Below are positions 9,699-32,262 of a stretch of DNA of 48,154 nucleotides, one piece after another. The notes beneath the pieces are model-generated. The model had not been told where the DNA came from. It searched no databases and saw nothing but the letters and a program-made list of their open reading frames with translations. The stretch is taken from positions 1 through 48,154 of the forward strand of contig JAGHHB010000017.1 of the NCBI GenBank assembly GCA_017887885.1, in the 5' to 3' direction. Position 1 is the stretch's first letter. Each line of letters starts with the position of its first letter. The DNA is from Bacilli bacterium. GTDB lineage: Bacteria; Bacillota_I; Bacilli_A; RF39; UBA660. The translations under genes were made by a program, and so were the position numbers.

Positions 9699-12269
9699 AT
9701 GAAAAAAATAATACTTGTCGATGGAAATAATTTACTTTTTAGAAGCTATTATGCAACTGCTTATACAGGAAATATCATGCGCAATAGCGAAGGTTTTCCG
9801 ACTAATGGATTGTATGGATTTGTCAATATGATAAATAAAATTATTCATGAAGAAAAACCACAATATATGATGGTAGCATTTGATATAGGAAAAACATTTA
9901 GACATGAAAAATACGATAAATATAAAGATGGAAGACGAGAGGTACCTGAAGATCTTAAAATCCAATTTCCGGTCGCTAAAAAGATTCTTACAGCAATGGG
10001 AATAAAGTATTTAGAATGTTCTGGCTATGAGGCTGATGATATTATCGGGACAATATCATTATGGTGTGAAAATGATCCTGACTACGAAGCATTAATTGTC
10101 AGCAGCGACAAAGATTTACTGCAACTTATTAGTGAGGAGACAACAGTTAAACTTCTTAAAAGTAAAGAATATATTATGATGGATAAAAGCACTTTTAAGG
10201 AAACTTATGGCTTTGAACCACAAAATATGATCGACTTGAAAGCACTAATGGGAGACGCTTCCGATAATATTCCTGGTATCAAAGGAATAGGAGAAAAAGG
10301 GGCTATTAAGTTACTGCGGGAATATAATTGTTTAGAGGAAATATATAAAAATATTGAAAATATAAAAGGGGCAATAAAAACAAAATTGTTAGAAGGTAAA
10401 GAGGTAGCATTTTATAGTAGAGAATTAGTTACTATCTATAGAAATGTTCCTCTTAATGTTACTTTTGATGAAATGTTATATAAAGGGGAAAATAGCGATG
10501 AACTTATTGATATTTTTAATGATTTACAATTTTATTCGTTATTAAAAAATGTCCATATTGATAGTCAAAATAACGATATAAGCGATTTTAAAATTGTTAC
10601 TAATATAAATGAAGTTATCATCAATGAAGATACCGCTATTTATTTAGATACAACTGAAGGTAATTATCATCAAGCTTCAATAATTGGTATTGCTTTATAT
10701 AATAGTAGGAATTCTTACTATGTTACCTTTGATATTTTAAAAGATAATTTTTATATCTTAAATAATATTCATATTAAATATACCTATGATTTAAAAAAAT
10801 TATTGGTTACAATGTATAAATATAATATAACTTTTGAAAATATTTCTTTTGATGTGATGATAAGTGGATACCTACTTAATTATAATGTAAAAGATGATAT
10901 CTGTTATTTAGCGAAAGATTTAAATTATGATATTCCTTTTTATGATAAAAAAGTAACTTTAGACGATTATGAAAAGGCTAAAAGAAATGTGTTAAAAGCT
11001 CGTTTCATATATGAAATCAAAACTCGTTTTGATAAAGAAATGGAAGACGAAGGCGAAAGTATCCTATTTAAAACAATAGAAATGCCCTTAACTAGAGTTC
11101 TAGCTAAGATGGAAATTGAAGGTATTCTAGTTGACATAAAAATACTTAAAGAAATGGGCGAAGAAATCAAAACAAAATTAGAAGTTATTACAGAAAATAT
11201 TTATAATTATGCAGGATGTCAATTTAATATTAATTCTCCAAAACAATTGGGTGAAATTCTTTTTGATAAATTAAAACTTCCTTGGGCAAAAAAAAATAAA
11301 ATTGGCTATGTGACGGATATTGATATATTAAAAAAATTAGCTAATTATCCTATTGTTAGTAAAATTCTGGAATATAGGAGTTTATCAAAATTATACTCTA
11401 CATATATTGAAGGCATTATTAATTGCGTTGGAGATGATAATAAAATCCATACGATTTTTACACAGACACTTACGAGAACAGGCAGACTATCATCAATAGA
11501 ACCAAATTTACAAAATATTCCTATGAAAAGTGAATATGGTAGGCTAATTAGAAAAGCTTTTATACCTGAAGAAAACGCAATGATTATGTCGTCTGATTAT
11601 TCACAAATTGAACTTCGAGTATTTGCTCATTTATCAAAAGTTAAAGATCTAATTGCGGCTTTTAATAATAATGATGATATTCATACAAAAACCGCTATGG
11701 ATGTCTTTAAAGTTCAAAAAGAAGAAGTAACTAAAAATATGAGAAGACAGGCCAAAGCTGTCAACTTTGGTATTCTCTACGGAATTAGTAGCTTTGGACT
11801 AGCTGAAGATTTAGGAATTTCTGTAAAAGAAGCAAAAGAATTTATTAATAAATATTTTGAGACGTATCCAGGTGTAAAAGATTATATGAATAAAGAAATC
11901 GAAGAGGCTACAAAGACAGGTACTGTAAAAACAATTATGAATAGAAAGAGAATTATCGAAGAATTAAAAAGTTCTAATCACAATATTAAAAGTATGGGGC
12001 AAAGAATGGCTTTAAATACTCCCATTCAAGGATCAGCTGCCGATATTCTAAAAAAAGCTATGGTGGAGATTGATGAGGCCTTTAGAAAGAAAAAAATAAA
12101 GAGTAAAATGCTTTTACAAGTTCATGATGAACTTATATTCAATGTCTATAATGATGAAATTGACGAAGTTAAAGATATTGTTTATAATATTATGACAAAT
12201 GTTTATCAGTTATTGGTACCGTTAGATGTCGATATTGAATTGGGAAATAATTGGTATGAAGCAAAATAA
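9699..12269 (+). CDS. polA: DNA polymerase I
   Basis: 5' nuclease N-terminus (LVDGNNLLFRSYYA). Pol motifs DYSQIELRV, RRQAKAVNFGILYG, QVHDEL. ATG at 9699 preferred over TTG at 9687. Confidence 0.95.
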   Translation: MKKIILVDGNNLLFRSYYATAYTGNIMRNSEGFPTNGLYGFVNMINKIIHEEKPQYMMVAFDIGKTFRHEKYDKYKDGRREVPEDLKIQFPVAKKILTAMGIKYLECSGYEADDIIGTISLWCENDPDYEALIVSSDKDLLQLISEETTVKLLKSKEYIMMDKSTFKETYGFEPQNMIDLKALMGDASDNIPGIKGIGEKGAIKLLREYNCLEEIYKNIENIKGAIKTKLLEGKEVAFYSRELVTIYRNVPLNVTFDEMLYKGENSDELIDIFNDLQFYSLLKNVHIDSQNNDISDFKIVTNINEVIINEDTAIYLDTTEGNYHQASIIGIALYNSRNSYYVTFDILKDNFYILNNIHIKYTYDLKKLLVTMYKYNITFENISFDVMISGYLLNYNVKDDICYLAKDLNYDIPFYDKKVTLDDYEKAKRNVLKARFIYEIKTRFDKEMEDEGESILFKTIEMPLTRVLAKMEIEGILVDIKILKEMGEEIKTKLEVITENIYNYAGCQFNINSPKQLGEILFDKLKLPWAKKNKIGYVTDIDILKKLANYPIVSKILEYRSLSKLYSTYIEGIINCVGDDNKIHTIFTQTLTRTGRLSSIEPNLQNIPMKSEYGRLIRKAFIPEENAMIMSSDYSQIELRVFAHLSKVKDLIAAFNNNDDIHTKTAMDVFKVQKEEVTKNMRRQAKAVNFGILYGISSFGLAEDLGISVKEAKEFINKYFETYPGVKDYMNKEIEEATKTGTVKTIMNRKRIIEELKSSNHNIKSMGQRMALNTPIQGSAADILKKAMVEIDEAFRKKKIKSKMLLQVHDELIFNVYNDEIDEVKDIVYNIMTNVYQLLVPLDVDIELGNNWYEAK

Positions 12270-12294
12270 AAATTATTTCCCGGGAAATAATTTT
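12269..12294. promoter_or_regulatory. NBS-type palindrome (Noc-binding-site core ATTTCCCGGGAAAT), copy 1
   Basis: Perfect 26-bp palindrome AAAATTATTTCCCGGGAAATAATTTT that begins at the last base of the polA stop codon. Confidence 0.7.
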
Positions 12295-12326
12295 AGAAAT
12301 ATTTTTTTGCAGAAAGGAAGGAAAAA

Positions 12327-13151
12327 ATGCCAGAATTACCTGAAGTGGAAACAGTAAAAGAAGCTTTAAAAGAAAAATTACTTGGGAAAAAGATTATCGA
12401 AGTAAATGTTCTTTATGATAAAATTATAGCTTATCCTACAAAAGAAAAATTTATTATAAAAATACAAAATCAAGTAATTAATGACATAACACGAAGAGGA
12501 AAATTTTTAATCTTTGATTTGGATAAGTATTATTTATTATCACATCTTAGAATGGAAGGAAAATATTTTTTTAGACAAAAAGAAGAAAATATTTATAAGC
12601 ACGAACATATTATTTTTAATTTAGATAACGAAGAACAATTAAGATATATGGATACAAGAAAATTTGGAAAAATGTATCTTATCAAAAAAGAAGATATTAC
12701 AATGGTTGGTCCTTTAAAAGATTTGGGATTGGAGCCGTGGGACGACAAGCTAACTAGTAAATATCTTCTCGATAAATATAGAAAGAAAAAGCTTCCTATT
12801 AAAACTGTTTTATTAGATCAAAATATTATTGTTGGCATTGGTAATATTTATGCAGATGAAATTTTATTTCTTTCGCAAATTAATCCTTTAAAAAAATGTA
12901 ATTTAATTACAAAGGAAGAAGCAGAAAAAATAATTGATAATACTAGGAAAGTTTTAGAAAATGCTATTAAAATGGGTGGGACAACCATTAGAACTTACAG
13001 TTCAGTAGATGGAGTTCACGGATTATTTCAAGAGGAATTATTAGTTCATGGAAAAGATCATGAAAAATGTCCTGTTTGTCGATCTGAAATTGAAAAAATA
13101 AAAATTGGCGGAAGAGGAACTTACTATTGTTCAAATTGTCAAAAAGAATAA
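12327..13151 (+). CDS. mutM: formamidopyrimidine-DNA glycosylase
   Basis: N-terminal PELPEVE. C-terminal zinc finger CPVC..CSNC. Confidence 0.92.
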   Translation: MPELPEVETVKEALKEKLLGKKIIEVNVLYDKIIAYPTKEKFIIKIQNQVINDITRRGKFLIFDLDKYYLLSHLRMEGKYFFRQKEENIYKHEHIIFNLDNEEQLRYMDTRKFGKMYLIKKEDITMVGPLKDLGLEPWDDKLTSKYLLDKYRKKKLPIKTVLLDQNIIVGIGNIYADEILFLSQINPLKKCNLITKEEAEKIIDNTRKVLENAIKMGGTTIRTYSSVDGVHGLFQEELLVHGKDHEKCPVCRSEIEKIKIGGRGTYYCSNCQKE

Positions 13152-13173
13152 TTTACGATGATTTTACACTCAT

Positions 13174-13205
13174 ATGTAACCTATTTGGTTACATTTTTCT
13201 TTTTT
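13174..13205 (+). terminator. intrinsic terminator after mutM
   Basis: Stem ATGTAACC / GGTTACAT, 5-nt loop, long T-rich tail. Confidence 0.75.
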
Positions 13206-13248
13206 TATTGACTAAAATAATTTAATATGATAGTTTAATCTTGGTGAT

Positions 13249-13665
13249 ATGATGAATGATGAACATTTTAGGAAGTCGCTGATCGAAATAACAGATAGTG
13301 GTCTTTTAAATGCGTTTATTAATGAAATATTTGGCTATAACTTGAAAGATGAACAATATATCTATATTCAATATAAAATTGTTCACAATAATATTGTATT
13401 AAATATGTTTGATAATAGCGATAGTAATAGATTTAAGGCCTTTATTTTTACACAAAATAGTAATTTAAAAGATAGTAAAGATATTAAATATATTGATATA
13501 AACCTTTGTTATAATAATTATAAAAAGAAAAAAATTCAAGATAAATTATGTTTAATTGGTGCACTTCTTGCAACTAAAAAGAACAATGAAAAAAAAGATA
13601 TTATAAATAAACTATTTGATGACAATATAGCGAAAATACTACTTAAATACTTTATTGCTAAATAG
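13249..13665 (+). CDS. hypothetical protein (138 aa), no recognisable motif
   Basis: ORF with GGTGA RBS before the ATG. Lys/Asn-rich, no family recognised by eye. Confidence 0.45.
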   Translation: MMNDEHFRKSLIEITDSGLLNAFINEIFGYNLKDEQYIYIQYKIVHNNIVLNMFDNSDSNRFKAFIFTQNSNLKDSKDIKYIDINLCYNNYKKKKIQDKLCLIGALLATKKNNEKKDIINKLFDDNIAKILLKYFIAK

Positions 13666-13666
13666 C

Positions 13667-14809
13667 TTATAATTTTATATCTTTTATTATTGGTTTTATT
13701 TGATATTCTCTTTTTATTAAACTAGGGTCAATTTCTAAAGAGTAAATCTTTGTAGCCATTAGTTCTATATCTAAAATTTTAGATATATTTTTTTTATATC
13801 CTGTAATGATAGGAAGCGTTATTTCTTTTTTTATTTTATTTAAATATTCTTGTCCATTTTGAGAAAAACCTAATATACGAAGATAATCTAAATTGATTTT
13901 TTTAGCATCCTCTTTAGTAAAACCAATCAAAATATGCAGTAATATTCGTGATATTTTATTATAAGTATATCTTTTAGTTTTTATTTTCATAATTAAATCA
14001 TTATAATCTTGTGCTACTTCTAAATATTTTAAAATACGATTTTCTATTCCCTCATCAACAGATTGATATCTTTTAATACTATTTCCCTCTAAAAGAATTT
14101 TATATTTTAAATATGGAAAATAGTTATTCATTGATAATTTATATAAATATTCTTCTTTATAAGGTATTAACTTATTAATAGAGGCATTTTCTAAAAAAGA
14201 TTTTCTAATAGCAGTTGCCGAAGCTATTTTGCCTTTTACTTTTGTACTATGATAATCATTTGTTCTTGGAATATTTCTTATCGATATTTTCATTTTCTGA
14301 ACAAACACTTCTCTAATATAGGCTAATGCTAATAGATCATTAGGTTTATCTATTCTTATTCCAATTAGATTTTCAATAGCTTTATTAGTAGCGGTAGGAT
14401 AATTCATTCCCTTTTTTAAATACCTTTTTAAAACTTCGTTATATTTCTTATTTTCTAACTGAAATTTGGCAACTTTAATTATTTTATCTATAGAAATAGA
14501 TTCTGTTCCAAATACCAATGTATCTATTTTTAATTCTTTTAATATTGCTATGGCACCTTTAGCAAAAATATCTGCTGATTGAGTGGCATAAACGAATGGT
14601 AATTCTAATACAATATCAATACCATAATTTAAGGCAATTTTTGTTTTATCCCATTTATTTAAAATGGAAACATCTCCTCTTTGTGTAAAAGAAGAAGATA
14701 TGACAGAGACAATAATACTATCTGGATATAAATTTTTTATCATTTTTATTTGATATAAATGTCCATTATGAAAAGGATTATATTCTGCTATTAATCCAAT
14801 GACATGCAT
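13667..14809 (-). CDS. tmcAL: tRNA(Met) cytidine acetate ligase (YlbM/TmcAL family nucleotidyltransferase)
   Basis: N-terminus MHVIGLIAEYNPFHNGHLYQ is very close to B. subtilis YlbM. Internal ATG at 14809 preferred over the track start at 14854. Confidence 0.8.
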   Translation of the reverse strand: MHVIGLIAEYNPFHNGHLYQIKMIKNLYPDSIIVSVISSSFTQRGDVSILNKWDKTKIALNYGIDIVLELPFVYATQSADIFAKGAIAILKELKIDTLVFGTESISIDKIIKVAKFQLENKKYNEVLKRYLKKGMNYPTATNKAIENLIGIRIDKPNDLLALAYIREVFVQKMKISIRNIPRTNDYHSTKVKGKIASATAIRKSFLENASINKLIPYKEEYLYKLSMNNYFPYLKYKILLEGNSIKRYQSVDEGIENRILKYLEVAQDYNDLIMKIKTKRYTYNKISRILLHILIGFTKEDAKKINLDYLRILGFSQNGQEYLNKIKKEITLPIITGYKKNISKILDIELMATKIYSLEIDPSLIKREYQIKPIIKDIKL

Positions 14810-14894
14810 ATTTATCACCAAATATATAATATCATAGTTAATAAAATAATGCAAAAAACAAAATTATAGATTAGAAAAAATATATACTACTATA

Positions 14895-14924
14895 TTGCGA
14901 ATATTATCTTTTATATGTTATAAT
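14895..14924 (+). promoter_or_regulatory. putative promoter of the GT2 gene
   Basis: -35 TTGCGA (14895-14900). Extended -10 TGTTATAAT (14916-14924). Spacing is 18 bp. Confidence 0.45.
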
Positions 14925-14955
14925 AAGCGTATATTATTTGAAATGAGGAAGTTGT

Positions 14956-16470
14956 ATGTTTAATTTTTTGAATGTTTTTAAAGAAATTGTTATTGATGTT
15001 GGAAATGCTTATCCTAGTTGGAAGAATATATATAACATAGTTGGAAATGTCATTACTATACTACTTGCATATAAAACCATTTATTGGATAATTGGTGTTT
15101 TTTTTACAAGAAAATTCAAACCTGCTAAAAATAATCATAAATATGCTATACTTATTGCTGCCAGAAATGAGAAAAATGTTATTGGTAATTTACTTGATAG
15201 TATAAAAAAACAAGATTATCCGCAAGAGTTACTCACTGTTTTCGTAGTAGCAGATAATTGTACTGATAATACGGCAGAAATTGCGAGAAAACGGGGAGCT
15301 ATTTGCTATGAAAGATTTGATGATGAACACAAAACAAAAGGTTTTGCGCTTCAATATCTACTGGAAAAGATTGAAGAAGATTATGGCAGAATGTCATTTG
15401 AAGGATACTTTATATTTGATGCAGACAATTTATTGAAAAAGGACTATATTTCACGAATGAATGATGCTTTCGATGCTGGTGAGAAAATAATTACTTCTTA
15501 TAGAAACACTAAAAATTTTGATGAAAATTGGATTGCTTCTACTTATGCTCTACATTGGATTAGATCAATCAGAAGTAATCATCGAGCAAGATCAATACTT
15601 AGACTTGCTACAAATATACAAGGGACCGGTTTTCTTTTTGCAAATGAAATTGTCAAGAACGGTTGGAAATATACTTCTTTAACTGAAGATAGAGCTTTAA
15701 CTGCCGATGCTGTAGCGCAGGGATATAAAATTTCTTATCAAGATGCTGCCGAATTTTATGATGAACAACCTACTAATTTAAAAGTTGCTTTAAGACAACG
15801 TACAAGATGGTCAAAAGGTCATTTAATGGCTTTTGTCGAAACAGGTCCATATTTACTAATGAATGTTTTTACAGGAAAATTATTCTTAAAAACTAAATGG
15901 CAAGAAAAAGAAAAAAGAAAAAAGAAAAAAAGTTTTAAGGATATTATTAAGGCAATTATCGAATCAATAAGACACCGTTTTGCATCTCTCGATACTTTAT
16001 TACAATTAACGCCTTTTTCAGTATTTAATATAGTTAGATGGTTAATAGTCTGTGTTATAATGTATGGTTGTTACTGTTATAATATTGGTATTAATAATAG
16101 TAATTTATTTAGTGGTGGTACTTATTTGGCAAAATTACTTAGAAATCTATTTGAAATAAAAATTTCTTTTGATCCTGGTATTAATGCTCTGTTTGTAGGA
16201 ATGATTTCTTCAATATGGCTTAGAATTTTTTATAGAATTGGTATGTATATTCAAAATATGTGGATGGCTATTTATCTATTTATTATTGAACGCAAGAGAA
16301 TTAAAAAAATTTCTTTAAGGAAGAAAATTTTATACACTCTTACTTGGCCCACATTCGATATTATTGGCAGATATACTACATATGCAGCTTTATTTATGAA
16401 AGTAACATGGAAACCAATACCACATGATAGCAAAGTTACTATTGATGATATTAATCGAGAAAATAAATAA
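14956..16470 (+). CDS. membrane-bound processive family 2 glycosyltransferase
   Basis: N-terminal TM segment, GT2 core (ILIAARNE, FDADN, TEDRAL), processive-synthase motif QRTRW, several C-terminal TM segments. Confidence 0.8.
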   Translation: MFNFLNVFKEIVIDVGNAYPSWKNIYNIVGNVITILLAYKTIYWIIGVFFTRKFKPAKNNHKYAILIAARNEKNVIGNLLDSIKKQDYPQELLTVFVVADNCTDNTAEIARKRGAICYERFDDEHKTKGFALQYLLEKIEEDYGRMSFEGYFIFDADNLLKKDYISRMNDAFDAGEKIITSYRNTKNFDENWIASTYALHWIRSIRSNHRARSILRLATNIQGTGFLFANEIVKNGWKYTSLTEDRALTADAVAQGYKISYQDAAEFYDEQPTNLKVALRQRTRWSKGHLMAFVETGPYLLMNVFTGKLFLKTKWQEKEKRKKKKSFKDIIKAIIESIRHRFASLDTLLQLTPFSVFNIVRWLIVCVIMYGCYCYNIGINNSNLFSGGTYLAKLLRNLFEIKISFDPGINALFVGMISSIWLRIFYRIGMYIQNMWMAIYLFIIERKRIKKISLRKKILYTLTWPTFDIIGRYTTYAALFMKVTWKPIPHDSKVTIDDINRENK

Positions 16471-16507
16471 TATATCTATTTAAATTATAATTAAAAAGAT
16501 GTCTTTT

Positions 16508-16547
16508 AACCTATAAGAAAGATCTAAAAAAATTCTTATAGGTTTTT
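16508..16547. terminator. hairpin terminator between the convergent GT2 and LtaS-family genes
   Basis: 12-bp stem AACCTATAAGAA / TTCTTATAGGTT, followed by a T-run on the + strand. Confidence 0.7.
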
Positions 16548-16581
16548 ATATACAAAAAGAAGCCTTTTAGACTTCTAATAT

Positions 16582-18534
16582 TTATATACCTTTATTTGTA
16601 TTTTTTATGGTTTTAAAGTAATCATATTTTAAAGTTAAGTCATTTTTCCTTATTAAGTAATTAATATAATAGTTCTTATCTTCAAGTGTAATTTGATCAA
16701 TGTATTTATTATTAGTTGCCACTCCTCCGTCAACATAGACTTGACCATCATACCAAGAATAATCACTAAAAAAGACATATCCTTTATAATTTTCTCCTAA
16801 TGCATCACTTCCAATATAGTAATTTGGATGATACTCATTACCAAAGAGATTTAATAATGTTGGTAAAATATTTAATTGGGATGTTACTTCTTTAACATTC
16901 TTTTTAGTAAGACCTTTTTTCCAAATAAAGAATGGAGTTTTGTTTATTAAATTATTATCTGTTTCTTTATACTTATCTAAAATAGATTGATCAGATATTG
17001 TATATAAATAATGATCTGTAAATACTACTATTACAGTATTATCGAGAAGATTTTTTTCTTCTAATTTATTTATTAATAATTCAACCATATAATCGGTCTC
17101 TTTAGCTTGCCGACGGGCACATTCTTCTTCATTCATAGTGGGAAGAATAATATCTGATGCCAAGTGTTCAGCATTTTCTTCAGCTTTCATATCTTCTTCT
17201 ATTAATATTTTGCAGACACCTTTTTCCGTAGTAAATGGCATATGACCAGAATACGTAATAATATAGTCGACAAATTTTTCTTCACTAAACATTTTTTCAG
17301 AAAAATCTTCATTTAAAATTAATTCTCGATCTAAAGTGTATGATTCATCATCATAAGTACCTAAATCTTTTAAGCCATAATAGTTATCATAGCCCCAATT
17401 TTTATAATTTGTTCCTCGTGAATAGTATTCACTTGTATTCATGTGAAAAGCGTTGACTTGATATCCTTCTTTTTTAAATAAGTTAGCTAATGAATAAGTA
17501 AATTCATTTTTATTGAATGAATAAGCATTTTGGGTATAAGAAAGTGGAGTTATAAATCCTGTATTAACTGCAAACTCAGAATTAAATGTCGAACCGCCAC
17601 CATTATAATAAGAATAATGATTAGAAAAGTTAATTGAGTTATTCATGAGTTTATACAATGTTGGTGTATCTTCTTCAGTTAACAACCAATTGTCTATTCC
17701 TTCTAATTGAAGTATTATTAAATTATTATCTTTAAATAATCCTGTATATTTATTTTTATAATTATCTTCAGTAATACTATATAATTCTTCAAGAAAAGAT
17801 AATTCTTCTTCATTATTTGTTTTCTTTGATTTTATAAAAGTAATATAAAAATTTCTAATTGTATATTCATATAATCCACTAATTCGCATACTTTTATTAT
17901 TATCATTAAAACTTATATATATATTGCGGGGATTACGCCATGTACTCCATGTTAATTCTGAATCGGGACTACCTAGAAGAAAAGGTATTAAAAAATGAAT
18001 AATTAGAAAAATAAAAAATATTTTTATAATATTCTTTAAATTAGTTTTTTGGCGTTTTGGAAAATATTTAATTCCTACTATAAATGATACAATTATAAGC
18101 AAAGAAGAAATATATACCCAAATATTGCAATTAATTATAGCATCCGCTATATATACTGATCCTTCACTTGTCATTGATAATAGACTAAAATCAAAAAATG
18201 AATCAGTCATTGAATAGTATATGTTATTTGTTAAAAAGATAAGAAAGAAAATAGAAAAAAATACTATATAATAAATCTTTCCTTTTCTTTTTTCTGTAAA
18301 TAGACATATTCCCAAAAGTAAAACTAACCATAAAATTGTAAATAAATTAGGTACTATACTTAATACATGGAAGAATTTTATTTTATTACCTATTATTCTA
18401 GTAATAATATCCATAAGTATAAAGGGTAAAGATACTAATATTATATTATAATGTTTAAGAAAGAATTTTCTAATAAAAGAAAACTTTTCTTTTATTTTAA
18501 ATTTTTTTACTACATTTTTCAAGACAATCACCAT
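16582..18534 (-). CDS. LTA synthase family (sulfatase-domain) membrane protein
   Basis: About 5 N-terminal TM helices followed by an extracellular alkaline-phosphatase/sulfatase-like domain (ILQLEGID, GGGSTFNSEFA, VVFTDHY). Confidence 0.8.
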   Translation of the reverse strand: MVIVLKNVVKKFKIKEKFSFIRKFFLKHYNIILVSLPFILMDIITRIIGNKIKFFHVLSIVPNLFTILWLVLLLGICLFTEKRKGKIYYIVFFSIFFLIFLTNNIYYSMTDSFFDFSLLSMTSEGSVYIADAIINCNIWVYISSLLIIVSFIVGIKYFPKRQKTNLKNIIKIFFIFLIIHFLIPFLLGSPDSELTWSTWRNPRNIYISFNDNNKSMRISGLYEYTIRNFYITFIKSKKTNNEEELSFLEELYSITEDNYKNKYTGLFKDNNLIILQLEGIDNWLLTEEDTPTLYKLMNNSINFSNHYSYYNGGGSTFNSEFAVNTGFITPLSYTQNAYSFNKNEFTYSLANLFKKEGYQVNAFHMNTSEYYSRGTNYKNWGYDNYYGLKDLGTYDDESYTLDRELILNEDFSEKMFSEEKFVDYIITYSGHMPFTTEKGVCKILIEEDMKAEENAEHLASDIILPTMNEEECARRQAKETDYMVELLINKLEEKNLLDNTVIVVFTDHYLYTISDQSILDKYKETDNNLINKTPFFIWKKGLTKKNVKEVTSQLNILPTLLNLFGNEYHPNYYIGSDALGENYKGYVFFSDYSWYDGQVYVDGGVATNNKYIDQITLEDKNYYINYLIRKNDLTLKYDYFKTIKNTNKGI

Positions 18535-18685
18535 CTCCTCTTGATTATACTATATATTTATTTTTTTGTAAATAGACATATTTAAAGGAAAAAATTCCAT
18601 AATTAAGGATTTTTTATTGTTATTTTTAATCTCATAGAATTAGTTTGAATAATTCAATAAAATTGTTTATTTTTTTCTTTTTTTT

Positions 18686-18694
18686 TGTTATAAT
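18686..18694 (+). promoter_or_regulatory. extended -10 element upstream of the HerA-like gene
   Basis: TGTTATAAT 32 nt upstream of the ATG, immediately preceded by T7-C-T9 tracts. Confidence 0.4.
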
Positions 18695-18725
18695 CTATTA
18701 TATAGAATAGAAAGAAGGGTTATTT

Positions 18726-20486
18726 ATGTTTAAAGGAATAATTGCTATAACTAAAAATTATGCTATTGTAAAAATAGATGGTATTGTCAGTGACGATCTA
18801 CTTAATCTAAATGTTATTTTCGAAGAAAATAATAAAAAAATTTTAGGAGAAATTGAAGAAATTATCAATGGCGAAGCAAAAATTAATTTTTTAGGAGAAT
18901 TTCATAATAATAAGTTTTTTGATGGTATAATAAGAAAACCTAGCATAAATGCTTCTATTCGGATTATTAATGCTGACGAATTAAAAGAAATTACTGGAAA
19001 TAATGATCAATATAGTATGACACTTGGACTTTCGCCACTTTATAATGATACTCCTATTAAAATAAATATTGATGATATGTGGAGTAATCATAGTGCAATA
19101 TTTGGTAATACTGGATCTGGTAAAACCTATGGTGTAGCTAGAGTTGTTCAAAATTTATTTACTATGCCTAATTATATTCCTTTTAATAGTATTATGTTCA
19201 TATTTAATAATACTGATGAATATGACAGTGCATTTAGCTCTATTAACAGATATAATCCTAATTTTAATTATAAGCTTTTTACGACTAATACTGATAGTGA
19301 TAATAATTTACTTAAACTTCCTCTTTGGCTTTTATCAATCGATGATTATGCTAATATTTTAGATATCACTGAATATTCCCAAATTATGATCATTGAAAAA
19401 ATGCTTATATATGTGTCTTTATTTTCGAAGAATGACGAAGAGAGTAATAAATATAAAAATCATTTAATTGCTAAAGCTATCGTTTCTGTTTTATATTCTA
19501 ATCAGGTAGCGGCAAGAATAAGAGATCAAATTTTTTCTATTTTGACAGATTGCTATACAAAAGAATTAAATCTTGATGTTGAAATACCTGGTGTTGGTTA
19601 TACGAGATCTTTTAGAAAGTGTTTTGATATCGATAGCAAAGGAGAATTTGTGGAAAGAATCCTAATTACAGAATATATTAATAAATTTATTGATAATAAT
19701 ATTGAATGGAAAGAAGAATACATTCCTACTTATTTTACAATTAATGATCTAGAAGTCGCACTTAATTTCACACTTATTTCAGAAGGTCTTTTATTAAATG
19801 AGAAATCATATAGTGAAGCAACAGCATTGAAAGTTAAACTTCATACTATTGCTAATAGTTCTATAAGAAAATTTTTTGAGGTCGATAATTTTATTTCAAC
19901 AAGTGATTTTATATCTAATTTAATTTTAATTGGTAATAATAAAAGAGCACAAATTATTAACTTTGTTCTCGAAGGAATTGATGATAGATTAGCTAAAAAT
20001 TTAGTAAAAGTATATTCAAGAATATTATTTAATTTTTTAAAAACACTTCCTGTAAGAGGAAGTATGCCCATACATATTATGCTTGAAGAAGCGCATCGAT
20101 ATGTTCAAAAAGATAATGATATCAATATTTTAGGATATAATATTTTTGAAAGAATTGCTAAAGAAGGAAGAAAATTTGGTGTTGTACTTGATTTAATTAC
20201 TCAAAGACCGACTGAATTATCAGAAACTGTTATATCACAATGTAGTAATTTTCTAATCTTTAAGATTAATCATCCTAGCGATTTAGAATATATAGAAAAA
20301 ATGGTTCCTAATATTAGCAGTGATGTTATTGAAAAGCAAAAATCACTACAATCAGGAACTTGTGTAGCTTTTGGTAAAATGATGAAAATTCCTATGATTG
20401 TTAAAATGCAACTTCCTAGTCCACCTCCTGAAAGTTCTAATGCTAAAGTTTTTGATAAGTGGATGGTACAGTGGAAAAATAATTAA
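18726..20486 (+). CDS. HerA/FtsK-superfamily ATPase (DUF87-like), orphan
   Basis: N-terminal barrel-like region, Walker A GNTGSGKTY, Walker B IHIMLEEAHRY, distal motif GRKFGVVLDLITQRPTELSETVISQCSNFLIFKINHPSD. Confidence 0.75.
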   Translation: MFKGIIAITKNYAIVKIDGIVSDDLLNLNVIFEENNKKILGEIEEIINGEAKINFLGEFHNNKFFDGIIRKPSINASIRIINADELKEITGNNDQYSMTLGLSPLYNDTPIKINIDDMWSNHSAIFGNTGSGKTYGVARVVQNLFTMPNYIPFNSIMFIFNNTDEYDSAFSSINRYNPNFNYKLFTTNTDSDNNLLKLPLWLLSIDDYANILDITEYSQIMIIEKMLIYVSLFSKNDEESNKYKNHLIAKAIVSVLYSNQVAARIRDQIFSILTDCYTKELNLDVEIPGVGYTRSFRKCFDIDSKGEFVERILITEYINKFIDNNIEWKEEYIPTYFTINDLEVALNFTLISEGLLLNEKSYSEATALKVKLHTIANSSIRKFFEVDNFISTSDFISNLILIGNNKRAQIINFVLEGIDDRLAKNLVKVYSRILFNFLKTLPVRGSMPIHIMLEEAHRYVQKDNDINILGYNIFERIAKEGRKFGVVLDLITQRPTELSETVISQCSNFLIFKINHPSDLEYIEKMVPNISSDVIEKQKSLQSGTCVAFGKMMKIPMIVKMQLPSPPPESSNAKVFDKWMVQWKNN

Positions 20487-20487
20487 A

Positions 20488-20520
20488 AAAACCTTTTATT
20501 TGATAAGGTTTTTTCTTTTT
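20488..20520 (+). terminator. intrinsic terminator after the HerA-like gene
   Basis: Stem AAAACCTT / AAGGTTTT, 9-nt loop, T-rich tail. Confidence 0.7.
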
Positions 20521-20526
20521 TTCAAC

Positions 20527-20638
20527 TATATCAACAACCCTGTTGAAAAAAATATTAACACCTGTTATTTTATTTTATCAACAAATTTGTTGATATCTTT
20601 ATTTTTCTTTTAATTATAAAGGTTTAAGTTGTTGATAA
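20527..20638. promoter_or_regulatory. oriC part 1: DnaA-box cluster upstream of dnaA
   Basis: ATATCAACA (20528-20536, +), TTATCAACA (20575-20583, +), ATATCAACA (20588-20596, -), TTATCAACA (20630-20638, -). The middle two form the palindrome TTATCAACAAATTTGTTGATAT. Confidence 0.75.
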
Positions 20639-20671
20639 ATTGTTAAATTACTTGTTATTATAAAAAAAAAC

Positions 20672-20699
20672 TAGACAAAATTTATTTTTGCGTTATAAT
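20672..20699 (+). promoter_or_regulatory. putative dnaA promoter
   Basis: -35 TAGACA (20672-20677), 16-bp spacer, -10 TATAAT (20694-20699). Confidence 0.5.
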
Positions 20700-20735
20700 A
20701 ATTTTAATGGGACTTTAAAGCAAGGAGGTTTGGGA

Positions 20736-22094
20736 ATGAACACAGATATGTTATGGAATAATTTTTTAAATAAAATTAAAGAACGTATATCTCCTTTATC
20801 TTATGATACTTGGTTTAAAGATACTAAACTTTATAAAATTGAAAAAAATTTAGCTATTATTATTGTTCCAATGATTCTACATAAAAAACATTTGGAAGAA
20901 AATTATAAAGATGATATTGAAGAAATTTTTAATTCAATTACTGGTACTAATTTTATATTCCAATTTAAACTAGAAAGTGAATTATCAGATAGTTATGAAA
21001 AAAGTGAGCAAATTGTCAACGATCTTGGTGGAGTACCATACCAAAGTAGTGTTAGTGCCAATTTGAAAAGTGAATATACTTTTGATAATTTTATTGTTGG
21101 TGATTCAAATAGATTTGCCTTTACGGCCGCTAGAGCGGTGGCAGAAAAGCCTGGTAAAGCTTATAATCCTTTATTTTTATATGGCAAAAGCGGTTTAGGG
21201 AAAACGCATTTAATGCACTCTATTGGCAATTATATCATTGAAAATTCTAATAAAAAAGTACTTTATGTATCTAGCGAACAATTTGTAAATGATTATATTA
21301 TGGCTGTTCGAAATAATGATAAAAATAGCTTTGAGAAAATAGATTCTTTTAAAAACAAATACCGTAATATTGATGTTCTAATTATAGATGATATTCAGTT
21401 TTTAGGCACTGCAACAAAAGGACAAGAAGAATTCTTTCATACTTTTAATCAATTACATGATTCTAATAAGCAAATAATTATTGCTTCTGACAGATCGGTT
21501 GATGATTTAAAAATGTTAGAAGACCGTCTAATTACAAGATTTAATTGGGGGCTTACCGCTAATATTACACCACCAGATTTTAACTTAAGGGTAAATATTA
21601 TAAAGAAAAAAATATCACACCAAGAGGCTGCTGAAGATATTCCTATCGAAGTTATAGAATACATTGCTAATATTAATGATTCAGACGTTAGACAATTAGA
21701 GGGAGCAATTACAAGAGTGTTTGCTTATGCTCTAATGATGAATAAAGGAAAAGTTACTTTAGATGTAGCAGTTGAAGCTTTAAAAGATAGAATTAGTGAT
21801 CGAAGTGTCTATAAAAATGACGTACATAGAATACAAAGAATCGTATGCGAATATTTTAAAATAGATATTGAAGATTTAAAAGGAAAGAAAAGAAGTAAAG
21901 ATATAAATTATCCACGACAAATTGCTATTTATTTATGCCGAATTATGACAAATGAATCTTTTCCTAAAATGGGTACTTATTTTGGAGGAAGAGATCATTC
22001 TACTATTATTAGTGCTTATCAAAAAATAGAAAAAGATTTAAAAACAAATAGTCAGTTACAAACAGTAATTAAAGAACTAAAAAGTAGGATATAG
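20736..22094 (+). CDS. dnaA: chromosomal replication initiator DnaA
   Basis: AAA+ motifs (LFLYGKSGLGKTHL, VLIIDDIQF). C-terminal DNA-binding domain (YPRQIAIYLCR, GGRDHSTI). ATG at 20736 follows RBS AGGAGG; the track start at 20688 is unlikely. Confidence 0.96.
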   Translation: MNTDMLWNNFLNKIKERISPLSYDTWFKDTKLYKIEKNLAIIIVPMILHKKHLEENYKDDIEEIFNSITGTNFIFQFKLESELSDSYEKSEQIVNDLGGVPYQSSVSANLKSEYTFDNFIVGDSNRFAFTAARAVAEKPGKAYNPLFLYGKSGLGKTHLMHSIGNYIIENSNKKVLYVSSEQFVNDYIMAVRNNDKNSFEKIDSFKNKYRNIDVLIIDDIQFLGTATKGQEEFFHTFNQLHDSNKQIIIASDRSVDDLKMLEDRLITRFNWGLTANITPPDFNLRVNIIKKKISHQEAAEDIPIEVIEYIANINDSDVRQLEGAITRVFAYALMMNKGKVTLDVAVEALKDRISDRSVYKNDVHRIQRIVCEYFKIDIEDLKGKKRSKDINYPRQIAIYLCRIMTNESFPKMGTYFGGRDHSTIISAYQKIEKDLKTNSQLQTVIKELKSRI

Positions 22095-22196
22095 TTGATA
22101 ACTTTCATTTTATCAACAGCTACTGTGGAGAAAAAAACTTTATTAATAAAGAGAATATACTGGTTTTAAACAATATCAACAGTATAATAATAATAA
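22093..22196. promoter_or_regulatory. oriC part 2: DnaA boxes plus a TAA-repeat tract between dnaA and dnaN
   Basis: TTATCAACT (22093-22101, -, overlaps the dnaA stop), TTATCAACA (22110-22118, +), TTCTCCACA (22124-22132, -), ATATCAACA (22173-22181, +), then (TAA)x4 at 22185-22196. Confidence 0.7.
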
Positions 22197-23328: not shown

Positions 23329-23342
23329 AACAGCATTATTTT

Positions 23343-23375: not shown

Positions 23376-23379
23376 ATCT

Positions 23380-23419
23380 TGTCGACAATAATTGACTATT
23401 TTCGACAATTTATTATGCT
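23380..23419 (+). promoter_or_regulatory. putative promoter of the ComK-like gene flanked by Spo0A-box-like motifs
   Basis: TGTCGACA (23380-23387) and TTCGACA (23401-23407; reverse complement TGTCGAA) bracket -35 TTGACT (23392-23397). Weak -10 TATGCT (23414-23419). Confidence 0.35.
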
Positions 23420-23464
23420 TAAATATACACTACATATTTTTATATGTGGAAAGGGGGAATTTTG

Positions 23465-23920
23465 GTGAACGATTATATTATTAATGAAAATACTTTATGT
23501 TTTGCTCAAGATATGGATAATGATGACACTTTACTTGTAATCGAAAAAACGAAGAAAATAAATATCAAAATGAAATGTCTTAAATTTATTAATAAATGTT
23601 GTTGTTGCTATGGTTACTCTTATAATATGCAAAGACAGTTTGTTATCGATAAATTTAACTTTTATATTAAGACACCAATTATTGTATCTGAGTATAATAT
23701 GTTTATTTTCTTTCCGACAGCTTCACCTCATTCAAAAGATTGTATATGGATTTCATATAATAATGTCGAGAGATATGTTAAAGAAAAAGATTATACAAAA
23801 GTATATTTTAAAGGCGGAAAAGTTTTAAATATTAACGCTAAATATACTACCATTGATAATCAAATTACAAAGTGCATTAAAATTGAAAGATACTTGAATA
23901 ATTTGAAGATGAAAAGATAA
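23465..23920 (+). CDS. ComK-family transcription factor
   Basis: Aligns by eye with B. subtilis ComK: CCCCYGYSY vs CRFFGSSY, KTPIIVSEYNMFIFFPTASPHSKDCIWIS vs KPPIMVDPSNQIFLFPTLSSTRPQCGWIS. GTG at 23465 follows RBS AAGGGGG; the alternative ATG is at 23444. Confidence 0.75.
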   Translation: MNDYIINENTLCFAQDMDNDDTLLVIEKTKKINIKMKCLKFINKCCCCYGYSYNMQRQFVIDKFNFYIKTPIIVSEYNMFIFFPTASPHSKDCIWISYNNVERYVKEKDYTKVYFKGGKVLNINAKYTTIDNQITKCIKIERYLNNLKMKR

Positions 23921-23958
23921 AATTTCTATCTTTTTATCTTTTTTTTACTGTTATTTTA

Positions 23959-23967
23959 TGATATAAT
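23959..23967 (+). promoter_or_regulatory. extended -10 element upstream of recF
   Basis: TGATATAAT, followed by the hairpin ATGTAC-AGGG-GTACAT (23973-23988). Confidence 0.4.
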
Positions 23968-24009
23968 TATATATGTACAGGGGTACATAAAATTAAGAAA
24001 GGTGAATTT

Positions 24010-24032
24010 ATGAGTACAAAAAATGCTTTTAA

Positions 24033-24036
<4 letters not shown>
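24010..24036 (+). CDS. 8-codon upstream mini-ORF (MSTKNAFK) overlapping the recF start
   Basis: Strong RBS AAAGGTGA lies 5 nt before ATG 24010. Its TGA stop (24034-24036) overlaps the recF ATG (24033-24035) as ATGA. Confidence 0.3.
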
Positions 24037-27096
<3,060 letters not shown>

Positions 27097-27111
27097 GGGT
27101 GGTGATTTTTA

Positions 27112-29610: not shown

Positions 29611-29629
29611 ATAAAATTAAATTAAAATT

Positions 29630-29660
29630 ATTGACTAATGGATTTGGTCAATAGTTTTTT
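29630..29660 (+). terminator. intrinsic terminator after gyrA
   Basis: 9-bp stem ATTGACTAA / TTGGTCAAT (including one G-U pair), 5-nt loop, T-run. Confidence 0.65.
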
Positions 29661-29666
29661 GTTTTA

Positions 29667-29692
29667 TAAATTATTTTCCGGGAAATAATTTA
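29667..29692. promoter_or_regulatory. NBS-type palindrome, copy 3 (variant)
   Basis: TAAATTATTTTCCGGGAAATAATTTA. Same element with a single C-to-T change in the core (TTCCGGG instead of TCCCGGG). Confidence 0.55.
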
Positions 29693-29734
29693 ACTCGAAC
29701 AGTTGTTTGCTTTATGCATGCGTTTTAATTAATA

Positions 29735-29763
29735 TTGCAATATTAATCAAAATATTATATAAT
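29735..29763 (+). promoter_or_regulatory. promoter of the SRP RNA gene
   Basis: -35 TTGCAA (29735-29740), 17-bp spacer, -10 TATAAT (29758-29763). Confidence 0.6.
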
Positions 29764-29769
29764 GTATTC

Positions 29770-29850
29770 GATACAACATTAATTAGTGGAACCAAGTCAG
29801 GAACGGAAGTTAGCAGCTTTAACACTTAATTAATGTGTGTATCTTTTTTT
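29770..29850 (+). ncRNA. ffs: signal recognition particle RNA, short 4.5S-like form
   Basis: Conserved domain IV sequence CCAAGUCAGGAACGGAAGUUAGCAGC (E. coli CCAGGUCAGGUCCGGAAGGAAGCAGC) with a GGAA tetraloop. A long closing helix pairs GATACAACATTAATTAGTG with CACTTAATTAATGTGTGTATC, followed by a T7 run. Lies near tadA and dnaX, as scr does in B. subtilis. Confidence 0.85.
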
Positions 29851-29903
29851 ATTTAAAATGTATTTTATATTATATGGATAGATATAAACTAAATTAAAAA
29901 ACA

Positions 29904-29919
29904 TGTTCCACGTGGAACA
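29904..29919. promoter_or_regulatory. parS-type ParB/Spo0J binding site 1
   Basis: TGTTCCACGTGGAACA, a perfect palindrome. It has one mismatch to TGTTNCACGTGAAACA, and both half-sites are TGTTCCAC. Confidence 0.75.
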
Positions 29920-29984
29920 TAGAAATATATAAAACTTGAATAATTAGTCTTAATACGAAAGATATAAACTAAAATAATAAATAA

Positions 29985-30000
29985 TGTTTCACGTGGAACA
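29985..30000. promoter_or_regulatory. parS-type ParB/Spo0J binding site 2
   Basis: TGTTTCACGTGGAACA. Its reverse complement TGTTCCACGTGAAACA matches the B. subtilis parS consensus exactly. Confidence 0.8.
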
Positions 30001-30065
30001 TAGAAATATATAAAACTTGAATAATTAGTCTTAATATGAAAGATATAAACTGAATTAATGAATAA

Positions 30066-30081
30066 TGTTTCACGTGGAACA
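30066..30081. promoter_or_regulatory. parS-type ParB/Spo0J binding site 3
   Basis: TGTTTCACGTGGAACA, identical to site 2. It lies 62 nt upstream of the tadA ATG. Confidence 0.8.
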
Positions 30082-30142
30082 TAAGAACATATATTGTTTA
30101 AAGTAATTTTATGTGGTAGTATTTTTCTTAATGGTGGTAATA

Positions 30143-30565
30143 ATGGAAAATAAATATTTAGAAATAGCAATTAAACAAGCAAAAAAAGCATACAAGAAAA
30201 ATGAAATCCCTGTTGGATGTGTAATTGTTAAAAATGATACAATTATATCATATGGATATAATTGCAAAGAAAAAAGAAAAAAAGCTACTATGCATGCTGA
30301 AATTGTTGCCATAAATAGAGCTTGTAAAAAATTAAAGAGTTGGCGTTTGGATGACTGTGTATTATATGTTACTTTAGAGCCCTGTATGATGTGTCTAGGT
30401 GCTATTTTTGAAAGTAGAATTAAATATGTTTATTTTGGAACAAAATATAAAGGCAAACAAATGTTTGATTTAGGAGAATGTCATAATATTACTTTTATCG
30501 ATTTAAAAAATAAAGAATGTGCAAAACTTTTAACGAATTTTTTTACTAATAAAAGAAAAAAATAA
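30143..30565 (+). CDS. tadA: tRNA-specific adenosine deaminase
   Basis: Zinc motifs HAE (MHAEIVAI) and PCMMC. ATG at 30143 follows GGTGG; the track start at 30113 is less likely. Confidence 0.9.
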   Translation: MENKYLEIAIKQAKKAYKKNEIPVGCVIVKNDTIISYGYNCKEKRKKATMHAEIVAINRACKKLKSWRLDDCVLYVTLEPCMMCLGAIFESRIKYVYFGTKYKGKQMFDLGECHNITFIDLKNKECAKLLTNFFTNKRKK

Positions 30566-30618
30566 TTTTTTTGGAAGTTTTATGTTATAATACTATATGA
30601 GATGAGTGGTGGTCATTA

Positions 30619-32262
30619 ATGGCATATTTGGCATTGTATAGAAAATATAGACCCAACAGTTTTGATGACGTTTTGGGACAAAATAAAGTAGTTGCTGTGA
30701 TAAAGAATGCTATTATTAATAATAAAGTTTCTCATGCTTATTTATTTAGTGGTCCGCGTGGTACAGGAAAAACGACTGTTGCTAAAATATTAGCGCGACT
30801 TGTCAATTGTGAAAGATTATCTAGTGATGGTAAACCTTGTGAGAAATGTTTTAATTGTATTAATTATTTAAATAGCAATGATATCGTAGAAATTGATGCT
30901 GCATCAAATAATGGTGTTGATGAAATTAGAGAATTGATTGATAAGGTTAATTTAGTTCCTAGTAATGCTAAATATAAGATTTATATAATTGACGAAGTTC
31001 ATATGCTTACGAATCAAGCTTTTAATGCCTTACTTAAAACTTTAGAAGAACCGCCTTCTCATGTTATATTTGTTTTAGCAACTACTGATCCGCAAAAAGT
31101 ACCTTTAACTATTTCTTCTCGCTGTCAAAAATTTCAATTTTCAAAAATAGATGACATGTGTATTGTGGAGCGCTTACAAAAAATTGTTGCTTTAGAAAAG
31201 ATTAATATTGATGAAGAAGCTCTATTTGAAATTGCTAGACTTTCTGATGGTGGAATGCGCGATGCTATTAATATGTTAGACCAATTGGCAACATATGAGA
31301 GTGGTCAAATTACTCTTGATGAAGTTCATATGGTTGCTGGTTCTGTCTCATATGATAATATATTTAATTTAATGGAAGCAATAAAATTAAATAACAAGAT
31401 AGCAATAATTAATTTTATTGAAGAATTTGATAAAAGCGGAAAAGAACTAAATAAATTTATTCAAGAATTAATTGTCTTTCTGAAAGATGTTATTTTATTT
31501 AAAAGTACAAAAAAATTAGAAAAAGGCGAAGTTAAAAGAAAGAATATTATGTTAATTGATGAGTTATATAACGAACATGATTTGTATAATTTTATTGAGG
31601 TTCTTAATGAAACAAGTAATAAAATAAAATTTTCTTCACATGGATCAATTATTTTTATGACTACTGTGTTGAAATTTTCTGATAATAATTTTAAAGAAAC
31701 AAATAAAATTATTTCCCGGGAAATAATTTCATTAGTGGAAACAGATGATGAGAATTTAAATGAAAAAAATATTTCCCAAAAAATAATTAATAAATATTCA
31801 ATAGGAAGAGATGAAATTGGAGTTAGAATAAATAATTCCTTTGCAACTGCTTCTAAAGAATTTTTAAAAAATATAAAAAATGACTGGTATAAAATAGATG
31901 ATTATATATCCGATGATGAATTTTCTGTAGTTAGCGGTCTTCTTAAAGATTCCCTTCCTGTAGTGGGATCTGCACAATACTTGACAATTGTTAATAAATT
32001 TGATTCGATTGTCGAGAGAATTAATGAAAATATTACATTGACAGAAAGACTGTTAAAAAAAGTTTTTAATTATGATATGATAATTGTTGCTATTAATGAT
32101 ATTACTTGGGAAGAAGAAAAAAATAAATATATTACAAATATAAAGAAAAATATTAAATATAATATAATTGAATTACCTGAAAAAGAAGAGCAAAAAAAAA
32201 TTAAAACATCAATTGATCATCTTGCAGAAATGTTAGGTGAGGATATTATTGAATATAAATAA
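30619..32262 (+). CDS. dnaX: DNA polymerase III subunit gamma/tau
   Basis: YRKYRP, Walker A GPRGTGKTT, zinc module CEKCFNC, DEVHML, SRCQKF. Confidence 0.94.
   Translation: MAYLALYRKYRPNSFDDVLGQNKVVAVIKNAIINNKVSHAYLFSGPRGTGKTTVAKILARLVNCERLSSDGKPCEKCFNCINYLNSNDIVEIDAASNNGVDEIRELIDKVNLVPSNAKYKIYIIDEVHMLTNQAFNALLKTLEEPPSHVIFVLATTDPQKVPLTISSRCQKFQFSKIDDMCIVERLQKIVALEKINIDEEALFEIARLSDGGMRDAINMLDQLATYESGQITLDEVHMVAGSVSYDNIFNLMEAIKLNNKIAIINFIEEFDKSGKELNKFIQELIVFLKDVILFKSTKKLEKGEVKRKNIMLIDELYNEHDLYNFIEVLNETSNKIKFSSHGSIIFMTTVLKFSDNNFKETNKIISREIISLVETDDENLNEKNISQKIINKYSIGRDEIGVRINNSFATASKEFLKNIKNDWYKIDDYISDDEFSVVSGLLKDSLPVVGSAQYLTIVNKFDSIVERINENITLTERLLKKVFNYDMIIVAINDITWEEEKNKYITNIKKNIKYNIIELPEKEEQKKIKTSIDHLAEMLGEDIIEYK
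31706..31729. promoter_or_regulatory. NBS-type palindrome, copy 4 (inside dnaX)
   Basis: Perfect 24-bp palindrome AAATTATTTCCCGGGAAATAATTT, translated as KIISREII in the variable linker of DnaX. Confidence 0.7.

Follow-up and report, generated by a model that had tools for sequence, protein, structure and literature searches.

Noc is the textbook example of a ParB duplicate that took on both a membrane anchor and a different DNA specificity and so came to regulate cell division. Its 16-bp Noc-binding site (NBS) has the consensus TATTTCCCGGGAAATA, in short form ATTTCCCGGGAAAT (PMC7383237, PMC8429893). Residues 173, 179, 184 and 201 read RTAG in ParB and QKKR in Noc, and exchanging the first set for the second is sufficient to switch specificity (PMC7383237); about 91% of NBS-specific variants carry K or R at 179 or 184, and variants of dual specificity mostly have T or S at 201 (Jalal 2020, PMC7383237). 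In Bacillus subtilis, nucleoid occlusion needs an N-terminal amphipathic helix, the N-terminal helices being alpha1, which targets the membrane, and alpha2 (PMC8429893). Here we analyze a family of palindromes with the NBS as their core in a 48,154-nucleotide stretch of DNA from an uncultured gut Bacilli bacterium (contig JAGHHB010000017.1 of assembly GCA_017887885.1; hereafter the window, meaning the whole stretch), and in its relatives. We consider it likely that these palindromes are loading sites for a Noc-clade clamp of the ParB family, restricted to the origin region and placed beside parS.

The palindromes stand far above chance expectation. The window holds three exact copies of the 16-mer NBS core, one copy with one mismatch and one with two; the baseline from 100 dinucleotide-preserving shuffles of the window was 0.00 for the full 24-mer and 0.02 for the 16-mer at up to two mismatches. 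The 16-bp core of the palindromes is identical to the published NBS, as the initial annotation had proposed and as the consensus in PMC7383237 and PMC8429893 confirms, and the window (27% GC) has just three CCCGGG hexamers, every one inside a palindrome. The four sites, with their outer limits, are those of the initial annotation; two further copies that it did not list are a decayed second copy in dnaX and a weak core inside rsmI (Table 1), which may be a degenerate member of a site class that recurs at trmN6/rsmI/pth in relatives. Site 1 has its start at the last base of polA's stop codon (12267-12269), and its end is 33 bp 5′ of the mutM ATG (12327); site 2 lies inside the 3′ end of recF, where its codons read KIISREII, 22 bp upstream of the gyrB ATG (25171); site 3 lies between gyrA and the gene for the small signal recognition particle (SRP) RNA; and site 4 reads KIISREIIS in a poorly conserved part of the DnaX linker.

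The same sites are found in many related species, and there too they are concentrated around dnaA. A scan for the exact 24-mer in one genome per species (185,579 species) returned at least 120 blocks from about 117 different metagenome-assembled genomes (MAGs), and genome-block counts given here rest on the 120 that were listed. All are MAGs of uncultured gut Bacilli labelled Bacilli, Tenericutes, Mycoplasmatota, Clostridium sp. CAG:710, Mycoplasma sp. CAG:956, or Candidatus Scybalousia, Onthousia, Coprovivens and Caccenecus, and NCBI taxonomy files the named genus that was looked up simply under Bacilli incertae sedis; 114 of the 120 are syntenic with the dnaA-to-mfd region of the window, and the remaining six map to the dnaX linker or to the rnpA-yidC-jag-mnmE-mnmG-rsmG-noc cluster across dnaA and its immediate surroundings. 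To lessen bias, metagenome contigs were scanned for the 16-bp core alone, yielding 56 blocks with GC <0.34 and 64 with GC ≥0.34. Among the low-GC blocks, 52 of 56 are origin-syntenic, three are short contigs without a recognizable gene, and one (L226) is a Bacteroidota-like polysaccharide locus that we rejected as a chance match. Of the higher-GC blocks, 7 of 64 are near noc, rsmG or dnaA and the others show the scatter that either classical NBS sites or chance matches would give. Some of these contigs (L162, L178, L235, L139 and L199; GC 0.39-0.62) have exact NBS cores adjoining noc-like genes with QKKR or QKRR signatures; thus Noc-type proteins and their sites occur in high-GC organisms too.

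In the listed relatives most sites of any one class fall in the gyrA|tadA interval (about 139 of 277 sites); dnaX, trmN6/rsmI/pth and jag-mnmE are further recurrent locations. In the listed blocks and the origin-syntenic low-GC metagenome blocks the sites fall within about 25 kb on either side of dnaA, a zone of about 50 kb; no further sites were found within 10 kb past either window end in the window's species. The high density near dnaA that the initial annotation reported is real, and a property of the lineage (114/120 listed and 52/56 low-GC blocks); the pattern is origin-restricted rather than a denser version of the scattered B. subtilis one. It is far tighter than that of classical NBS sites and resembles that of parS. 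The 24-mer and parS arrays can serve as markers of the origin region in fragmented MAGs. Such proximity could also mean that origin-proximal complexes modulate DnaA or oriC activity, for which S. aureus Noc, which restrains initiation and has minor peaks around dnaA, provides a precedent (PMC5540599). Although all sites are within about 25 kb of dnaA and the recurrent jag-mnmE site is a few kb from it, most sites (gyrA|tadA, dnaX and trmN6-pth) are 7-20 kb away, and none is at the dnaA promoter or in the dnaA-dnaN spacer; we regard replication control as quite improbable.

The lineage's site is also longer than the classical one, a possibility raised in the initial annotation and borne out when sites are selected by their core only. 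In the genome blocks, after removal of one ascertained copy per block, positions -12 to -9 read A.83, A.86, A.91 and T.81, and 64 of 151 sites are full 24-mers; in the core-ascertained lineage sites of the metagenome scan the same positions read A.73, A.86, A.81 and T.71, with 30 full 24-mers among 77. In the contigs of GC ≥0.34 from that scan these positions are random, and none of 64 cores extends to the full 24-mer. The extension is not a by-product of AT-richness, because parS sites in the same loci are conserved only to ±9 and the background A/T frequency is about.37. As judged from these alignments, a flanking AAAT at either end brings the site to 24 bp, an extension restricted to this group of uncultured gut Bacilli.

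The pattern of conservation indicates that the palindrome DNA is under purifying selection. Species with 40-80% protein identity have their sites at orthologous positions. The polA|mutM site is retained in a related species (L224; polA 82% and mutM 78% identical) where the flanks have diverged, and in strain-level contigs (L126-L129); the copy at the recF/gyrB junction is intact in L007, L146, L157, L174 and L208, again with different flanks. In three of these loci (L146, L174, L208) an exact core lies some 4.6 kb away from the junction site, compared with 4.5 kb between sites 2 and 3 of the window, and because they keep the exact core at matching spacing, the C-to-T change in site 3 is probably recent. 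In the relatives, 46 sites lie at relative position ~0.62-0.72 of DnaX, a region without protein conservation; some species translate the palindrome as (K/Q/E)IISREII and others, in a frame shifted by one, as NYFPGNN(F/L). Since it is kept in two frames, the DNA and not the peptide is the object of selection. In several relatives dnaX holds a pair of intact copies at a distance of 90-130 bp. Near polA, two relatives (L153:7782-7830 and L224:887-930, the latter being the polA|mutM site) have a palindrome with an additional partial half-site immediately after it (GGGAAATAATTT or GGAAAATAATTT).

These data bear on whether the palindromes might be copies of a miniature mobile element (MITE), serve at the RNA level as hairpins or terminators, or be the operators of some unrelated regulator. 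The idea that a miniature palindromic element spread recently, which the initial annotation had entertained, has to be abandoned: similarity between copies stops at about 27 nt, no target-site duplications were found at the flanks of the copies compared, positions are orthologous across species, even inside coding sequence, and the dnaX copy occurs in two frames. The palindromes are perfect, and one directly follows the polA stop codon and precedes a T-run, as a terminator might; against this, the hairpin folds weakly as RNA (-9.9 kcal/mol, z = -1.9) and some copies, two of them in the window's coding sequence, are within genes. The sites, moreover, co-occur with a protein bearing NBS-type residues (see below), and we regard all explanations of this group as very improbable indeed.

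Canonical-type parS sites lie 230-400 bp from site 3 of the window, within a tandem repeat (Table 1). Each half-site of the palindromes departs from the parS consensus TGTTNCACGTGAAACA at two positions. In 72 of the 120 listed blocks the gyrA|tadA interval carries a parS array, with as many as 11 sites; the exact canonical sequence TGTTTCACGTGAAACA occurs 166 times in the listed blocks, almost always in that interval. Of 208 NBS-type sites, 114 are no more than 100 bp from a parS. In four related loci the two kinds of site alternate strictly in tandem arrays (Table 1), and because the spacer sequences differ between species, the comparison suggests that the alternating arrays were amplified independently. 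There is no fixed geometry: the centre-to-centre spacing of parS and NBS varies (26/37, 58/68 or 62/64 bp). The parS sites near site 3, the interleaving throughout the lineage and the restriction to the origin region were all absent from the initial annotation.

The candidate reader of the 24-bp sites comes from the relatives. In eleven related loci that have the palindrome, a ParB-family gene follows mnmE-mnmG-rsmG, which is where B. subtilis has noc; the gene is rsmG-adjacent in L066, L077, L080, L104, L112, L130 and L132. The best NCBIfam match is TIGR04285 (nucleoid_noc, 273-283 bits) and the best PDB match is Geobacillus Noc (201 bits, with Thermus Spo0J at 183 bits); the protein has the motifs PNRFQPR, GERRYKA, ENIQR and SERHAR, and its C-terminal domain can be aligned with the one in B. 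subtilis Noc. Residues 173/179/184/201 are Q-K-N-R in 120 of 120 close homologues. In a broader sample of 150 representatives of clusters at 50% identity (at least 150 clusters exist), of which 146 could be typed, Q173 is present in all 146, K179 in nearly all and R201 in 145, while position 184 is N, S, T, A or G and, in the 150 representatives, never K or R. Q173, K179 and R201 without K184 are compatible with NBS specificity under the rule of PMC7383237, and the family is predicted to be NBS-specific because it has K at 179 and R, not T or S, at 201. We infer that the window's genome encodes such a protein, since its sites are intact and relatives with 84-91% DnaA identity keep them. A literature search on Noc in RF39, RFN20 or Mollicutes-type lineages returned nothing relevant.

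The initial annotation had looked to a Noc-like ParB paralogue bearing an amphipathic helix at its N terminus. The relatives supply the paralogue, after rsmG and with Q173, K179 and R201, but not the helix. Specifically, i) alignment to Geobacillus Noc begins at its residue 25, so that both helix alpha1 and helix alpha2 are missing; ii) among the 149 representatives with an identifiable PNRFQPR motif, 146 have 14-21 residues before it, against 39 before the matching motif of B. subtilis Noc; iii) stop codons 2-9 codons upstream of the gene starts leave no room for an N-terminal extension; and iv) an AlphaFold2 model has a beta-strand (residues 8-11) as its first element; it shows confident N-terminal and DNA-binding domains (5-200), joined by a linker that is disordered (202-318) to a C-terminal domain that is folded. 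The linker is acidic and 100-250 residues long over the family (about 174 in close homologues). All 120 close homologues (P0001-P0120) have a KFFNF-type motif at about residues 248-262, which in most reads NKFFNFLEDEAANM and which recurs as a KFFxF-type motif in 34 of the 150 broader representatives; this motif may be a partner-binding peptide. As NKFFNFLE it is acidic and modelled with low confidence. Other conserved linker patches in P0001-P0120 are IEVLDDF, PFLF and KIVDPMDSVIKLDPNY, and the rest of the linker is variable. Relocation of the membrane helix to the linker was considered and rejected, the top amphipathic windows having zero or negative net charge in all four linkers scanned.

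Classical nucleoid occlusion, in which Noc would load, spread, tether the origin region to the membrane and block Z-ring formation there, draws support from the match of the core to the NBS, from the Noc-clade protein in the noc position after rsmG, and from the wall- or division-related genes for SpoIID, an M23 peptidase and MreB in the window, which make Z-ring division plausible; the linker motif, too, may be a membrane or partner contact. Set against these are the absent N-terminal amphipathic helix, the zero or negative net charge of the top amphipathic windows in the four linkers scanned, and the fact that a site zone of about 50 kb would shield a very small part of the nucleoid, so that we consider nucleoid occlusion unlikely. 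The strong Noc/membrane-tethering zone of the initial annotation is not supported, as the helix is absent. The rsmG-adjacent gene of the lineage, called a ‘ParB/RepB/Spo0J family protein’ in one named record, is Noc-type by its specificity residues, and ‘nucleoid occlusion protein’ would be an unsuitable name for it.

About 1.5 Mb of the lineage's origin-proximal DNA yielded neither a canonical ParB gene nor a ParA gene: tblastn searches of about 2 Mb of collected DNA, with Spo0J and Soj as queries, found just the Noc-like genes and one exception. The exception, L184, was rejected as a lineage ParAB because it belongs to a different Firmicute with a classical noc-soj-spo0J operon. Nor could any parAB be found within 10 kb of the noc-like genes of L130-L132, where a penicillin-binding protein gene, argS and prfA stand downstream in place of soj-spo0J. 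The perfect conservation of the parS arrays nevertheless points to a separate ParB in the lineage as their putative partner, maybe encoded elsewhere, unless the lineage departs from expectation in some other way. Alternatively, ParA and ParB may have been lost and the Noc-like protein may serve the origin as sole centromere protein, for example in SMC loading, through NBS-type and possibly parS sites. The parS-like rather than NBS-like distribution of the sites, the lack of ParA or a second ParB in the regions just described, and the resemblance of the protein to a ParB stripped of the extra N-terminal part of Noc all speak for this; the 166 exact copies of canonical parS kept beside the NBS-type sites argue for a separate parS reader, the family has R201 where dual-specificity variants mostly have T or S (Jalal 2020), and a ParB may be encoded outside the sampled regions. 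On balance we consider it unlikely that the Noc-like protein acts alone.

The reading we prefer is that the palindromes would be chromosomal nucleation (loading) sites for a Noc-clade, CTP-dependent DNA clamp of the ParB family, whose dimer would read the half-site TATTTCCC through a helix-turn-helix with Q173, R201 and the permissive K179. The origin region would then be coated by two related clamps loading from interleaved NBS-type and parS sites, the outcome being a composite, centromere-like domain at the origin. The Noc-like protein probably organizes or marks the origin region and recruits a partner, in place of the membrane tethering of DNA by B. subtilis Noc. We would put forward more tentatively, as a possibility on the doubtful side, that a large, previously unnoticed branch of Noc in uncultured gut Bacilli is a second origin clamp and not a nucleoid-occlusion factor, with 24-bp sites among parS, working beside ParB or replacing ParA/ParB through its linker motif.

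We wish to stress that several points weigh against the preferred reading. In the window's species no ParB-family gene was found in the window or within 10 kb past either end; the Noc-like proteins of relatives score under the curated TIGR04285 cutoff (315 bits) and are without the N-terminal amphipathic helix (about 10 residues) that is a defining feature of Noc; the specificity rules derive from a Caulobacter ParB scaffold; and the ~1.5 Mb of origin-proximal DNA showed no canonical ParB or ParA. The scans covered sequence blocks, so that weaker sites far from the origin are possible. Binding of the protein to the sites, its loading and spreading, and all of its function are deduced from sequence.

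The gene order from dnaA in the window is dnaA-dnaN-comK-like-recF-gyrB-gyrA-ffs-tadA-dnaX-ybaB-recR-holB-ricT-trmN6-rsmI-pth-mfd. Before dnaA lie a sigA-like gene, sufCDSU, polC, polA, mutM, a few envelope genes and a DUF87 ATPase gene; after mfd come spoVT, metG, tatD, spoIID, an M23 peptidase gene, spoIIID and mreB. The sites flank dnaA; their placement around oriC in the initial annotation goes further than this, because GC skew is positive over the entire window (1-48154, with 13000-22100 the part of most interest), with no switch at dnaA, and the DnaA boxes adjoining dnaA are all degenerate. The segment upstream of dnaA holds genes for a DUF87/HerA-like ATPase, an ltaS-type sulfatase and a GT2 protein as well as tmcAL, mutM, polA, polC and suf; in most relatives the rpmH-rnpA-yidC-jag-mnmE-mnmG-rsmG-noc cluster occupies that place instead. 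A gene of the ComK family (PF06338; 23444-23920) separates dnaN and recF, a placement kept in many relatives (25-69% identity). Just past the right end of the window, some strains of its species (L123:11500-17800 and L124:11500-17800) have an insertion after rpiB with an HTH_38 gene, genes for thymidylate kinase, uracil-DNA glycosylase (UDG), a MazG-like protein and a nucleoside deoxyribosyltransferase, and an rve integrase fragment; duplicated rpiB forms its edges.

Table 1. Positions of palindromes, parS sites and associated genes (window coordinates unless a related locus is named)
Feature	Position	Strand	Remarks
Site 1, AAATTATTTCCCGGGAAATAATTT exact	12270-12293	none	perfect 26-bp palindrome, 12269-12294
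dnaA	20688-22094	+	anchor of the origin-proximal gene cluster; from Pfam domains, open reading frame list and synteny with 114/120 listed relative loci
Site 2, AAATTATTTCCCGGGAAATAATTT exact	25126-25149	none	perfect 28-bp palindrome, 25124-25151
Site 3, AAATTATTTCCCGGGAAATAATTT with one core C-to-T change	29668-29691	none	26-bp palindrome with 1 mismatch, 29667-29692
Small SRP RNA gene	29765-29851	+	Rfam RF00169, 56.7 bits, E 6.7e-10; separates site 3 from the parS array
81-bp tandem repeat, 2.6 copies	29880-30094	none	three parS; between the SRP RNA gene and tadA
parS TGTTCCACGTGGAACA	29904-29919	none	canonical-type
parS TGTTTCACGTGGAACA	29985-30000 and 30066-30081	none	canonical-type
Site 4, AAATTATTTCCCGGGAAATAATTT exact	31706-31729	none	in the dnaX linker, relative position 0.67
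Decayed second dnaX copy, AAAAAAATATTTCCCAAAAAATAATTA	31763-31789	none	60 bp 3′ of site 4
Weak core, TATTTCCCGAGAAATT	36402-36417	none	2 mismatches; inside rsmI
Strict parS/NBS alternation	L094:2363-3702	none	125-bp unit, 10.7 copies
Strict parS/NBS alternation	L048:1113-1576	none	126-bp unit, 3.7 copies
Strict parS/NBS alternation	L003:18-435	none	62-bp unit, 6.7 copies
Strict parS/NBS alternation	L004:2263-2905	none	tandem repeat

In this lineage the new specificity of Noc is present and the anchor absent, and the sites are centromere-like and stand amid parS, sometimes in perfectly alternating tandem arrays. Noc-type specificity would thus be used in a parS-like way, origin-restricted and interleaved with parS, by a Noc-clade protein without a membrane helix. 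If true, this would be a natural case in which a change in DNA specificity is uncoupled both from membrane binding and from site dispersal, and would bear on how Noc arose from ParB or was later remodelled; it would offer a natural system for studying two related CTP-dependent clamps loading side by side on one DNA, roles of Noc-type proteins other than nucleoid occlusion, and the order in which Noc features were gained or lost.

Three described systems bear comparison. With Noc from B. subtilis and from S. aureus, the lineage shares the identical 16-bp core, intact GERRxRA and ENLQR-type motifs, Q173, K179 and R201, a Noc-like C-terminal domain and, as tested in relatives, a gene placed after mnmE-mnmG-rsmG; it differs in that the protein lacks the N-terminal amphipathic helix and helix alpha2, never has K at position 184 (N/S/T/A/G), has an acidic linker of 100-250 residues in place of a short basic one and falls under the TIGR04285 cutoff, and in that the site is 24 rather than 16 bp, interleaved with parS, and dnaA-proximal rather than scattered. 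With chromosomal ParB-parS, it shares tight clustering at the origin, multiple copies within a few kb and the clamp architecture; the half-site TATTTCCC, however, differs from the parS half-site TGTTTCAC at two positions, canonical parS occurs as distinct sites within the same intergenic region, the protein has Q173/R201 and PNRFQPR instead of R173/G201 and PNPYQPR, no N-terminal peptide of the ParA-interaction type is evident in it, and no ParA gene was found nearby. The engineered PtoN15 (Jalal et al. 2020) likewise combines a ParB-like body without a membrane helix with NBS recognition through Q173, K or R at 179/184, and R201; PtoN15, however, is a laboratory construct on a Caulobacter scaffold, whereas the lineage family is natural and very diverse (at least 150 clusters at 50% identity), with an extended site and a linker of its own.

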